This document shows, piece after piece, positions 27,246 through 29,809 of a stretch of 64,000 nucleotides of DNA. Position 1 is the first letter of the stretch. Each line of letters opens with the position of its first letter. The DNA lies in assembly GCA_965222375.1 (NCBI GenBank), contig CBDCTZ010000011.1, positions 596,319 to 660,318 on the forward strand, read 5' to 3'. The stretch is from Polyangiaceae bacterium (lineage in GTDB: Bacteria > Myxococcota_A > Polyangia > Polyangiales > Polyangiaceae). The position numbers and the translations under genes are program-made. The notes beneath the pieces are model-generated. The model had not been told where the DNA came from, did no database searches, and worked only from the letters and a program-made list of their open reading frames with translations.

Positions 27246-28361
27246 TCAGTCTTCGACGCTCAAAACGATCTCGTGGGCTTCGGTCAGATCTGGAACCGTC
27301 CAGCGCTTCAACATGCTGGACAGCACCGACTCAGGAACCGGCGCGTCCCGTTCGCGGTTGCGCCGGCACAGCACATCCCAGGGGACCTCGCAGTAGACGA
27401 CCCGCACCCGGGCAGCGTAGTCCGCGAACAGGTCAATCAATTGGCGCCGCGTGCTGCGAGCCAAGTTGGTCGCATTCCAGCAGAACGGTGTGCGCTGCCG
27501 CAGCAACTCCCGGGCGCGCTGCTTGGCTAGCGTGATCACCTCTCCGTCACCCTTGCCGTGCGCCGTGCCCAGTTCCTGGCGAATGGTGTCTAGAGACACG
27601 ACTGGCAAGGGTCGCTCCTGAGCCGCAAGCCAGGTGTCCTTTCCAGAGCCGGGCAGCCCACACATCACGGTGACCTGGCCCTCGCTCGTGTCGTGAGCCG
27701 CGTAGTGCGGGTTGCGATCTTCGCGTCGAAAGTACTCGAAGCGACTGTGAGCCGAGGCGAAGGCGAAGGGCGCCGACAGGCAGTCGTTTTCACGGCTCAG
27801 CTCCCGGAATAGCTCGACGTTGTCCAACAGACGCTGCTGGTCTTCGCACTCTCGGCCGCGAATGTCGGCCTCGCAGAGCAGCGCTAGCAGATCGCAGCGC
27901 ACGACCTGTGAAACCCGTATCACCGAGCCCCTGGGGCGTTCTTTGTCCATGACGAAATACGGCAGCTGGTGCACCTGGACCAAGCGCGCAACGAGTTCCC
28001 GCTGGGCAAAGGGCGCACCGAGCTGCCACAGGATGCGACGCGTCTCGATTTCCCCACGGCTGGAATGCCCTCGGGCGGTCAAGCTGCCGCCCTCCTCGCG
28101 GGTGCACTCGGGCTTTGCGACGTCATGGAGCAACGCCGCCCAAAACACGGCCGTGCGATCTTCTTCTGGAAGGCTTCGAAACTCTGGCAGTTCCGCCAGC
28201 GCTTCACACACCATCCTGGTGTGAATCCAAACGTCGCCTTCGGCGTGATGGGTCGGATTCTGAGGCACGCCTTGCAACGCGCGGATCCAAGCGTAGCGAT
28301 CGTGGAGGCTCTGCCAGTCCAGCGCGAAATCCGGCGGCGCCGGGCACACGGGCAAGCTCAT
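27246..28361 (-). CDS. HD phosphohydrolase + P-loop kinase (HD-Pnk-like end-healing enzyme)
   Basis: HHAEGDVWIHT, LLHDVAKP; Walker A GLPGSGKDT; WNATN; RNRERD lid. Confidence 0.88.
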   Translation of the reverse strand: MSLPVCPAPPDFALDWQSLHDRYAWIRALQGVPQNPTHHAEGDVWIHTRMVCEALAELPEFRSLPEEDRTAVFWAALLHDVAKPECTREEGGSLTARGHSSRGEIETRRILWQLGAPFAQRELVARLVQVHQLPYFVMDKERPRGSVIRVSQVVRCDLLALLCEADIRGRECEDQQRLLDNVELFRELSRENDCLSAPFAFASAHSRFEYFRREDRNPHYAAHDTSEGQVTVMCGLPGSGKDTWLAAQERPLPVVSLDTIRQELGTAHGKGDGEVITLAKQRARELLRQRTPFCWNATNLARSTRRQLIDLFADYAARVRVVYCEVPWDVLCRRNRERDAPVPESVLSSMLKRWTVPDLTEAHEIVLSVED

Positions 28362-29149
28362 AGGGCCTCCGCGAAGATGTCCGTGCCGGGTGCCAGGAGG
28401 TTCGGGATGATGGGCCGATTCAACCAGTGGGAGCCGCTCTCGACCACGTGAGTCAGAAACGTGTGCCGAATGTACTTGAAACGAGCAAGCACTCGGTCGC
28501 CTTCTTCGACCTTGATGTACAGGCCCTCTGCGACAGGAGATGGATCCGTTTCGCGGCTCACCTGGTCAGCATCCAGCTTCAAGTCTGTGGCATGGGCGCT
28601 CAGCCGTTCGCGCCAGCCTTCGGACTTGTACACGGAGGGGAGGATCAACTTGGTCAGCTCCTCGACGCGTTTGAAGCAGCCTTGCTCCAATACGGGAACC
28701 GAGGCGATGGGAAGGTCGCTGGTGAGCTCACGGCGCGCAGCCGTAGACAGAAACTGGTCCGTGTCACGGTCGAGAACGTCGAACTCCATGAAGTAGTGCG
28801 GTAGGGAGTCGTAGAAGATGGTGTGCTTGGCGTAGAGCCACTCGCCGTAGAGCACGAAGCGACTGCCCAGGGCGATGCGCAGTGCCGATTGATGCGCGCT
28901 GGCCCAGGTCTTGAACACAGCGAAGTGTTTCTCTCGAGGGCCACCGGTCAGATAGTGACCCCGGCTCTGCAGGAGCAAGCTGCCGTCCTCGGCAAAGGAG
29001 ATCGCCGCATTGGCGCCGTCGAGCTTCTCTTCTACGACAAGGTGCTTCCCGGCAATCCTCGCGAAAGGCACCGCGTCCAAGTCTTCGTCCCCGGGCTGAA
29101 GTCGAGAGCCAACCAAGTGAGGCGTTCGCGGATACTTCTCGATGCGCAT
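28358..29149 (-). CDS. ATP-dependent RNA ligase family protein
   Basis: KYPRTPHL; motif I EEKLDGAN; YGEW; FMEFDV; EGLYIK; RFKYIR. Overlaps the next gene by 4 bp. Confidence 0.9.
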   Translation of the reverse strand: MRIEKYPRTPHLVGSRLQPGDEDLDAVPFARIAGKHLVVEEKLDGANAAISFAEDGSLLLQSRGHYLTGGPREKHFAVFKTWASAHQSALRIALGSRFVLYGEWLYAKHTIFYDSLPHYFMEFDVLDRDTDQFLSTAARRELTSDLPIASVPVLEQGCFKRVEELTKLILPSVYKSEGWRERLSAHATDLKLDADQVSRETDPSPVAEGLYIKVEEGDRVLARFKYIRHTFLTHVVESGSHWLNRPIIPNLLAPGTDIFAEAL

Positions 29150-29152
29150 GGC

Positions 29153-29809
29153 TCAGACCCGGGCGACCGCGACCATATGACCCAAGACGAACTCGACGTT
29201 TACCCGAGCTGCGCCAGCTCCCAGGAGCAGCTCGCTCAGGGAGTCCTTGGTGAAGAGGTGAATGTGCTCGGGGTTTTCGTCAGCTTTGGAGGGGACGGAC
29301 ACGACCACGAAGCGCTCCGCCACCCGCAGCGCTTCTGCGGCGGCGGCCTGGGTGTCGGGGATGTGTTCCAAGACTTCCAAGGCACAGACCAAGTCGAACT
29401 GTGCGTCATCGAAGGGTAGGGCGCAGAGGTCAGCCTGCTTGGCTCCCAATCGAGAAAGTCCGCCGCGGCTGACGGCGTGCAAGTCTGCCGCGCGATCCTC
29501 CCGCCTGTCGATGCTGGTGACCGAGAGCGAAGGGAAAGCGTCCAGCAGCGGCCACAGGAACGTGCCTTTGCCGCTTCCGACATCGAGCAAGGACTGCGGA
29601 GCAAGTCCTTTCAAGATCCCGATGACGCGTCGAACTCGAGGCAGGTCTAGCGTGCGCTTGAACTTGTGCAGCCGAAGCCCGGCGGCCAGGCCCGCCTCGA
29701 TCGCCTCGGCTTCGGACACGGCTGCGTCCAGATCGAGACGGCCGCGGCAGTACGCGCTCGCGAAGAGAGTGAAGTAGCGCTGGTTGAAGTCGTCGTGATC
29801 GAATGACAT
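29153..29809 (-). CDS. Class I SAM-dependent methyltransferase (possibly Hen1-like)
   Basis: LLDVGSGKG; FDLVCALEVLEHI; NPEHIHLF. 3-bp gap to the ligase. Confidence 0.85.
   Translation of the reverse strand: MSFDHDDFNQRYFTLFASAYCRGRLDLDAAVSEAEAIEAGLAAGLRLHKFKRTLDLPRVRRVIGILKGLAPQSLLDVGSGKGTFLWPLLDAFPSLSVTSIDRREDRAADLHAVSRGGLSRLGAKQADLCALPFDDAQFDLVCALEVLEHIPDTQAAAAEALRVAERFVVVSVPSKADENPEHIHLFTKDSLSELLLGAGAARVNVEFVLGHMVAVARV

Follow-up and report, generated by a model that had tools for sequence, protein, structure and literature searches.

The LIG/HD-Pnk cluster, which pairs an ATP-dependent ligase (LIG) with the phosphoesterase-kinase HD-Pnk, has reportedly been known since 2017 through the work of Munir and Shuman. 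In the accessible part of the account of Runella slithyformis (PMC6097658), the candidate repair cluster comprises Tpt1, a predicted methyltransferase-HIT fusion, a putative ATP-dependent ligase and HD-Pnk, the ligase open reading frame overlapping the HD-Pnk start; the lone ligase forms ligase-AMP, yet joins none of the tested 3'-OH/5'-PO4 DNA or RNA substrates, and its natural substrates are stated as unknown. For the Pnkp1-Rnl-Hen1 heterohexamer of Capnocytophaga gingivalis, the available excerpts (PMC4411300) report that Rnl repairs only with all three proteins and that S-adenosylmethionine (SAM) speeds ligation at least 10-fold. Here we analyse a comparable locus in a 64,000-nucleotide stretch of the genome of a Polyangiaceae bacterium (GenBank assembly GCA_965222375.1, contig CBDCTZ010000011.1, positions 596,319 to 660,318; hereafter the window). 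At positions 27246-29809, three co-oriented minus-strand genes encode, in this order, a methyltransferase, a ligase and an HD-Pnk. We put at roughly 50% the probability that they form a three-enzyme nucleic-acid end-repair module, most likely acting on RNA, which heals the ends, 2'-O-methylates them and seals them.

The three genes are tightly coupled, as a sequence-only reading of the stretch had stated and as the list of open reading frames and the junction sequences bear out. The first (29153-29809, 218 residues) encodes a class I SAM-dependent methyltransferase of a ligase-associated family, as established by its open reading frame, Pfam matches, AlphaFold2 (AF2) model and family alignment. 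A spacer of 3 bp (29150-29152; the junction reads TGA-GCC-ATG) separates its stop codon from the start of the second gene (28358-29149, 263 residues), which encodes an ATP-dependent RNA-ligase-type nucleotidyltransferase consisting of a stand-alone nucleotidyltransferase domain. The ligase stop and the HD-Pnk start share a 4-bp ATGA overlap (28358-28361), and the third gene (27246-28361, 371 residues) encodes an N-terminal HD phosphoesterase joined to a C-terminal P-loop polynucleotide kinase (Pfam HD and AAA_33). Because the neighbouring genes, a divergent EF-G paralogue, a Ser/Thr kinase and secreted Gly/Cys-rich proteins, are unrelated, the operon in the window is composed of exactly these three genes.

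As far as the accessible part of PMC6097658 allows the comparison, the Runella HD-Pnk has the same architecture, with the HD phosphoesterase at its N-terminus and the 5'-OH kinase at its C-terminus. In both clusters the ligase open reading frame lies immediately upstream and overlaps the HD-Pnk start, in the window through the ATGA, and the ligase is itself preceded by a gene for a SAM-dependent methyltransferase; one of the loci that we collected (L077) shows the published order Tpt1-methyltransferase-ligase-HD-Pnk. However, the window methyltransferase stands alone, without a HIT domain, whereas that of Runella is fused to one; the spacing between methyltransferase and ligase is 3 bp in the window and 152 nt in Runella; and the window cluster is devoid of Tpt1. 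Compared by description only, this shared architecture suggests that the window ligase and HD-Pnk are homologous to the characterised Runella proteins. The sequence-only reading had proposed a distinct three-component repair system: the three-gene module is indeed conserved, but its distinctness has to be qualified, as that part of PMC6097658 already describes, for Runella, both the ligase/HD-Pnk pair and a methyltransferase clustered with it.

Conservation was assessed by scanning species-representative genomes. The ligase-anchored scan yielded 464 confirmed relatives, the best 80 loci of which were analysed, and a reciprocal methyltransferase-anchored scan yielded 79 new loci, genes being called by tblastn anchoring; as at least nine contigs are common to both sets, the two series of counts are not independent. 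A methyltransferase homologue (42-78% identity) lies directly upstream of the ligase in 49 of the 80 ligase-anchored loci and elsewhere in the locus in three others (L025, L044 and L067), the upstream DNA being too short to judge in four. HD-Pnk matches of at least 250 residues were found in 76/80 of these loci and adjoin the ligase downstream in 72/80. Conversely, the ligase lies directly downstream of the methyltransferase in 69 of the 79 methyltransferase-anchored loci. Five more carry a ligase match in another form (two truncated at contig ends, one a fragment of 22 residues, one at a distance of 2.7 kb and one a divergent HNH-ligase fusion), three carry no ligase, and in two the contig is too short to judge. 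Judged by their record titles, the loci belong to Myxococcota, Bacillota, Bacteroidota, Chloroflexota, Acidobacteriota, Planctomycetota, Actinomycetota, Verrucomicrobiota-like and other lineages, and this recurrence across phyla places the arrangement far beyond chance. A fortuitous adjacency of methyltransferase and ligase, which we considered, is ruled out by the conservation counts. The neighbourhood comparison suggested by the sequence-only reading thus finds the methyltransferase conserved beside the ligase, from whichever gene one starts.

The methyltransferase family is also sharply bounded among methyltransferases, as the number of clusters falls steeply with the E-value: an exhaustive search of 1.84 billion representatives returned 5779 clusters at E ≤ 0.001, 463 at 1e-10 and 138 at 1e-30. 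It is a dedicated ligase partner family, a near-obligate neighbour and sometimes a fusion partner. Within the window's phylum its distribution is patchy: of 151 genomes sampled, 2 carry the methyltransferase at E ≤ 1e-35, and the 11 genomes from the family of the source genome all gave no match, which fits an accessory module moving horizontally. The Runella cluster itself was absent from the best 80 loci of the ligase-, methyltransferase- and Tpt1-anchored scans; 3/80 of the Tpt1-anchored loci contain the cassette, and neither the genome carrying L200 nor 121 genomes from that genome's family gave a match to the ligase query (E ≤ 1e-20).

Fusion proteins associate the methyltransferase with two types of ligase. 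Three proteins (P0001, P0003 and P0005) join it to the same ligase family and one (P0242) to a divergent ligase, and in four others (P0002, P0004, P0145 and P0146) an Rnl2-type RNA ligase (RNA_ligase plus T4_Rnl2_C) is followed C-terminally by the same methyltransferase family (54-56% identity). Rnl2-type ligases are therefore a second, independent ligase partner of the family. This association with two RNA-ligase types points to RNA ligation and, of all our evidence, argues most strongly for a methyltransferase working on or with it. A scan of the 12 longer methyltransferase relatives detected no HIT domain. A complex prediction for ligase and methyltransferase scored 0.00 in both runs, with controls not folded, and counts neither for nor against binding; nor are the fusions proof that the free-standing proteins bind each other. 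In the ESM Atlas, the entry at rank 24 is a cluster of 198-residue methyltransferases, 80% of them viral (Uroviricota), with a feature score of 0.96 to the window methyltransferase; the family may thus have phage-borne relatives.

What the methyltransferase might do is best approached through its conserved residues. Pfam assigns it to Methyltransf_11/25/12/23 (E 3e-13 to 4e-11; Methyltransf_11, E 3e-13), its AF2 model has a mean confidence (predicted local distance difference test, pLDDT) of 95.1, and an alignment of 56 family members, to which the invariances given for the methyltransferase refer, has 21 invariant columns, among them K51, R58, D76, G78, G80, G82, R106, E145, E148, H149 and H182. 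D76-x-G78-x-G80-x-G82 is the SAM-binding motif I (29564-29584, minus strand, as for all features of the operon), and R58 (29636-29638) lies 18 residues before its Asp. The sequence-only reading had pointed out an EVLEH motif and a downstream EHIHLF, and had likened them to the ExxEH and later His by which Hen1 binds metal. Both are present, at residues 145-149 and 181-186: E145-V-L-E148-H149 (29363-29377) contains three of four candidate metal ligands, and N179-P-E-H182-I-H-L-F-T187 (29249-29275), in which N179, P180 and H182 are invariant, holds the candidate fourth, H182.

The likeness to Hen1 holds at the level of aligned residues. The source genome encodes a Hen1 of its own, with which the methyltransferase shares 26% identity over 189 residues (BLASTP, E 1e-8; query residues 6-174 to Hen1 218-396). 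BLASTP, hhalign and MAFFT agree in pairing E145/E148/H149, in EVLEH, with E364/E367/H368, in the EVIEH of Hen1, and in pairing R58 with Hen1 R271, each of them invariant in its own family and 18 residues ahead of the motif I Asp. In the MAFFT alignment, NPEH182IHLFT is additionally matched to Hen1 HRDH416RFEWT, across a stretch of ~12 Hen1 residues that is missing from the ligase-associated methyltransferases; as hhalign ends just before that stretch, the H182/H416 pairing rests on one method. The residues aligned here are reportedly the metal ligands of bacterial Hen1, from work on the Clostridium thermocellum enzyme, and the numbering offset fits. In plant HEN1, according to the accessible part of PMC10781085, the metal is bound by E796, E799, H800 and H860 together with the terminal 2'- and 3'-OH, and D859 directly precedes H860; E181-H182 of the methyltransferase is the same acid-His pair. 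All four candidate ligands thus align with the HEN1 metal ligands, H182 by MAFFT only, and the methyltransferase looks in part as if it worked like Hen1.

The two other proteins have intact catalytic motifs. The ligase matches RNA_ligase (PF09414) with E 7e-36 and 124.3 bits, the gathering cut-off being 27, and its 44-sequence alignment has a mean column identity of 66% across phyla. The candidate adenylylated lysine (motif I) is K42 (29024-29026) of EEK-x-DGAN, in which E40, E41, K42, D44, G45, A46 and N47 are invariant (n=44). Searched by sequence, it has no match in the PDB. The top Foldseek matches of its AF2 model (pLDDT 92.8) are RNA ligases, namely NgrRnl (Rnl5), Rnl3, T4 Rnl2, TbREL1 and Trl1-LIG (E 9e-9 to 2e-7, TM about 0.5), DNA ligases ranking lower. 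With the Rnl5/Rnl2 clade (NgrRnl, T4 Rnl2, TbREL1) it shares the nucleotidyltransferase fold and the lysine motif; in contrast to these enzymes, its 263 residues form a bare nucleotidyltransferase domain, without the N-terminal OB domain of Rnl5 or the C-terminal domain of Rnl2.

In HD-Pnk, the HD match spans residues 45-138 (E 8.5e-6) and the AAA_33 match residues 230-356 (E 9e-26). NCBIfam gives weak matches to PSTK, to the HD region of CCA enzymes and to the bacterial Pnkp kinase, and the PDB sequence matches, likewise weak, are PSTK, the CthPnk kinase and T4 Pnk. The metal set of the HD domain (27852-28247) is complete, H47, H79-D80, H99 and D166 being invariant and H131 nearly so in 44 homologues. 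In the kinase domain (27282-27677), the P-loop G235-L-P-G-S-G240-K241-D-T, D258, R261, W295-N-A-T298-N, R305 and R338 are invariant or nearly invariant in the same alignment, with G240, K241, D258 and R261 strictly so. The sequence-only reading had regarded the kinase GKDT and WNATN as atypical. Both are present, at 240-243 and 295-299, but as they are the consensus of the 44 HD-Pnk homologues they are typical of the family.

Several loci show other combinations around these genes. An Anaerolineae metagenome-assembled genome (L160, 819-6738) encodes a TPR protein, the methyltransferase, an HNH-RNA ligase fusion of 350 residues, the ligase part of which is 33% identical, and an 879-residue protein without Pfam match that replaces HD-Pnk. 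In L046 a second healing-type protein of 297 residues (7321-8214), with the domains in reversed order, P-loop kinase then HD, is encoded downstream of HD-Pnk. In a Rhodobacteraceae genome (L071), a LIG/HD-Pnk pair that lacks the methyltransferase is immediately followed by an RtcB ligase gene (7184-8377).

Going beyond the gene order and coupling, domain identities, intact catalytic motifs, cross-phylum conservation and fusions described above, we infer the substrate, the methylation site and an order of steps. The HD domain of HD-Pnk would first remove a 2',3'-cyclic or 3'-phosphate to leave a 2',3'-diol, and the P-loop kinase domain would phosphorylate the 5'-OH, both roles being assigned because the architecture is common to the characterised Runella HD-Pnk. 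By analogy with HEN1, a divalent metal held by E145, E148, H149 and H182 would then let the methyltransferase grip the 3'-terminal ribose by its cis-diol and transfer the methyl group of SAM to O2'. The ligase, adenylylated on K42, would join the 3'-OH and the 5'-phosphate, and the 2'-O-methyl group at the sealed junction would block repeat cleavage by transesterifying ribonucleases. The ligase may also depend on the methyltransferase for its activation, as the ligase of the Hen1 systems depends on Hen1.

The same four predicted activities, 5' kinase, 2',3' phosphoesterase, ligase and SAM methyltransferase, are found in bacterial Pnkp-Hen1 (TIGR04075/TIGR04074), and the candidate metal tetrad and upstream Arg of the window methyltransferase align with Hen1. 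The parts differ, however: Hen1 has ~460 residues, including an N-terminal half, whereas the window methyltransferase has 218; the ligase is a separate protein in the window operon; and the phosphatase of the window is of the HD type, whereas Pnkp, which its NCBIfam model calls a kinase-phosphatase, has one of the calcineurin type. The Capnocytophaga heterohexamer, as described in the available excerpts of PMC4411300, resembles the window system in that healing, sealing and methylation are assigned to three separate polypeptides; its ligase needs its partners and is stimulated by SAM. It differs in that its Hen1 is full-length and in that the kinase and phosphatase of its Pnkp1 come from other superfamilies. 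No Pnkp1-Rnl-Hen1 chain was among the 50 Foldseek matches (E ≤ 0.001) of the ligase model, which is not an exclusion.

Judged by its profile scores, the methyltransferase is not a member of the Hen1 family. On TIGR04074 it scores 20.3 bits against a cut-off of 340 (E 1.7e-4), over model positions 256-395 only, and it has no counterpart of the ~250-residue N-terminal half of Hen1, hhalign reaching Hen1 columns 272-402 only. The sequence-only reading had proposed a minimal Hen1-like methyltransferase; this description fits the aligned metal-ligand residues, but not the descent of the protein. True minimal Hen1 proteins do exist and are distinct from the ligase-associated family, as indicated by a stand-alone Hen1 methyltransferase domain in genome G021 (L102, contig C5, 167460-168068; 217-residue open frame, 230 bits, model positions 256-461).

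By both hhalign and NCBIfam rank, the methyltransferase is not closer to Hen1 than to other class I methyltransferases, and a first set of results that weigh against RNA-end 2'-O-methylation stems from these comparisons. Among NCBIfam models, MftM scores 63 bits, ArsM 33, UbiG 30 and Hen1 20, which places Hen1 7th of 21. With hhalign, the family aligns to methyltransferases fused to GT2 domains with a probability of 99.1 (E 5e-19, 166 columns), and to nine Hen1 sequences with a probability of 97.6 (E 5e-12, 122 columns, ending before H182). In a PDB sequence search, RebM (38 bits) and a glucose O-methyltransferase outrank the C. thermocellum Hen1 domain (3jwi, 3jwg; 24 bits), and a PDB profile search with the family alignment, the profile of which also held ligase columns from two fused rows, retrieved no Hen1 chain at E ≤ 0.001. 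In the structural comparison with Hen1 that the sequence-only reading had called for, generic small-molecule class I methyltransferases (RedM, SgvM, RebM, OxaG and GtmA) are the top matches of the AF2 model, and Hen1 chains are absent from the Foldseek matches listed and from the best 50 of the 1000 chains aligned by VIA. VIA gives Z 18.7-21.6 for the top 50 and Z ≥ 8 for all 1000 chains, so that this fold does not discriminate.

A second set concerns the genomic context. Of 76 evaluable ligase loci, 24 lack a methyltransferase within 5 kb, although each offers 650 bp or more of DNA upstream, which indicates that ligase and HD-Pnk can work without a methyltransferase close by. The source genome already has a canonical Hen1-Pnkp operon (contig C15, 729388-733325; L081 and L087), in which Hen1 (716 bits on TIGR04074) is directly followed by Pnkp (1424 bits on TIGR04075); with the window operon, this makes two different candidate RNA repair cassettes in one organism. 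Tpt1, an RNA 2'-phosphotransferase, is part of the cassette in a few methyltransferase-bearing loci (L077/L104, L045 and L124), and this counts against a 2'-O-methyl product because a 2'-phosphate junction and a 2'-O-methyl group exclude each other on one nucleotide. An ADP-ribosylglycohydrolase-NADAR fusion occurs in the cassettes of L061/L129 and of about seven other Bacteroidales loci (including L105, L107, L109, L119, L130 and L131), and a NADAR-Macro fusion in those of L025/L149 and L140. Together, the Tpt1, NADAR and Macro neighbours suggest that some of the systems deal with ends bearing a 2'-phosphate or ADP-ribose. Finally, the searchable literature yielded no biochemical data on the ligase-associated methyltransferase. 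On contig C14 of the source genome (931268-931925; L088 and L089) we also noted two Pnkp fragments, covering model positions 167-350, with an internal TAG, and 800-849, which look like the remnant of a second, decayed Pnkp gene.

These observations leave room for a module that repairs ends or joins RNA, with a methyltransferase that does not act on O2' of the 3'-terminal ribose: it might instead methylate a base, a terminal phosphate, an ADP-ribose-derived group or another sugar hydroxyl, or serve mainly as a structural activator of the ligase. We hold this to be possible, if on the unlikely side. The closest relatives by score are sugar, small-molecule and GT2-fused methyltransferases and not Hen1, and the GT2-fused outgroup also has DxxEH and a later conserved His, so that the motif may be a trait of the clade and not a sign of RNA-end methylation. 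The sequence-only reading had itself warned that EVLEH is common in unrelated methyltransferases, and the outgroup justifies that caution. The Tpt1, ADP-ribosylglycohydrolase-NADAR and NADAR-Macro neighbours hint at 2'-phosphate or ADP-ribose chemistry, and the accessible part of PMC6097658 describes the Runella methyltransferase as fused to a HIT domain. On the other hand, R58 and NPEH-x-x-x-F-T align with Hen1-specific invariant residues, from which the GT2-fused outgroup departs in both places; ligation could not proceed at a methylated 5'-phosphate; and that none of the four candidate metal ligands varies speaks for catalysis and against a purely structural role. The tetrad may mark a broader clade of metal-assisted hydroxyl methyltransferases. 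The best-scoring named relatives are annotated as sugar O-methyltransferases, a kinship that would still fit methylation of a ribose hydroxyl, without proving it.

We consider it improbable that the cassette serves a programmed processing or joining of RNA in place of damage repair, for instance by maturing, circularising or end-protecting a particular RNA of the cell or of a mobile element. The patchy distribution, 2 of 151 phylum genomes, combined with high sequence conservation across phyla, would suit such a role, as would the Hen1-Pnkp operon already available for repair. No toxin or defence gene adjoins the operon in the window, and PADLOC gave no specific match, its single hit being a 35-bit generic methyltransferase (mad2), which provides no evidence for a known defence system. 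However, the cassette has neither a conserved RNA gene nor any constant neighbour beside it, the flanking genes differing between loci, and the healing of both ends followed by sealing is the logic of repair: to our knowledge, every known repair cassette heals both ends and seals. There is equally little likelihood that the module mends DNA breaks or nicks in DNA-RNA hybrids with the methyltransferase as an accessory, since, although DNA ligases appear lower in the fold list, the ligase matches the RNA_ligase family and has RNA ligases as its best folds, the methyltransferase is also fused to Rnl2-type RNA ligases, and a metal-bound cis-diol mechanism requires a ribose.

Around the operon, no complete sigma-70-like site was detected in the promoter and terminator consensus scan, which returned one terminator-like site, on the opposite strand, fewer than in shuffled sequences; a perfect TATAAT hexamer lies at 29891-29896 on the minus strand, ~82-87 nt upstream of the methyltransferase start. 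In PHROGs the operon proteins match generic RNA ligase and polynucleotide kinase families. The EF-G paralogue (30143-32371, plus strand) has all five EF-G domains and diverges from the operon over a 333-bp spacer, a pairing that is not kept in related loci. Further away, a 748-residue protein (21351-23597, plus strand) consists of ~14 tandem copies of a Cys-rich unit of ~47 residues (GGKCLS...W.C..GH.W...WCP.C) and matches DUF4379, a probable treble-clef zinc finger, and in a secreted-looking protein of 404 residues (32627-33841, minus strand) Gly/Ser runs alternate with CFCDSECVAAGDCCASCP-type Cys motifs, with a weak match to Somatomedin_B.

Neither the family of stand-alone methyltransferases nor its near-obligate coupling to, and fusion with, two ligase types nor its HEN1-like catalytic residues were found in the searchable literature, which excluded Burroughs & Aravind 2016, the likeliest source. 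Tentatively, and with less confidence than for the module as a whole, we propose that the methyltransferase is the missing partner of the orphan LIG: a Hen1-independent, minimal, metal-dependent 2'-O-methyltransferase of the 3'-terminal ribose which licenses the ligase, the module being a third and far more compact repair-with-immunity system spread horizontally through at least eight phyla. If this is true, the ligase would seal only with the methyltransferase present or only on methylated ends, which would explain why the Runella ligase self-adenylylates yet joins no tested substrate. The methyltransferase offers a direct way to ask what the orphan ligase joins. Should the heal, mark and seal scheme prove true, bacterial RNA repair of this kind would have evolved at least three times from different parts, and the annotation of the family as 'class I SAM-dependent methyltransferase' could be replaced by a function.

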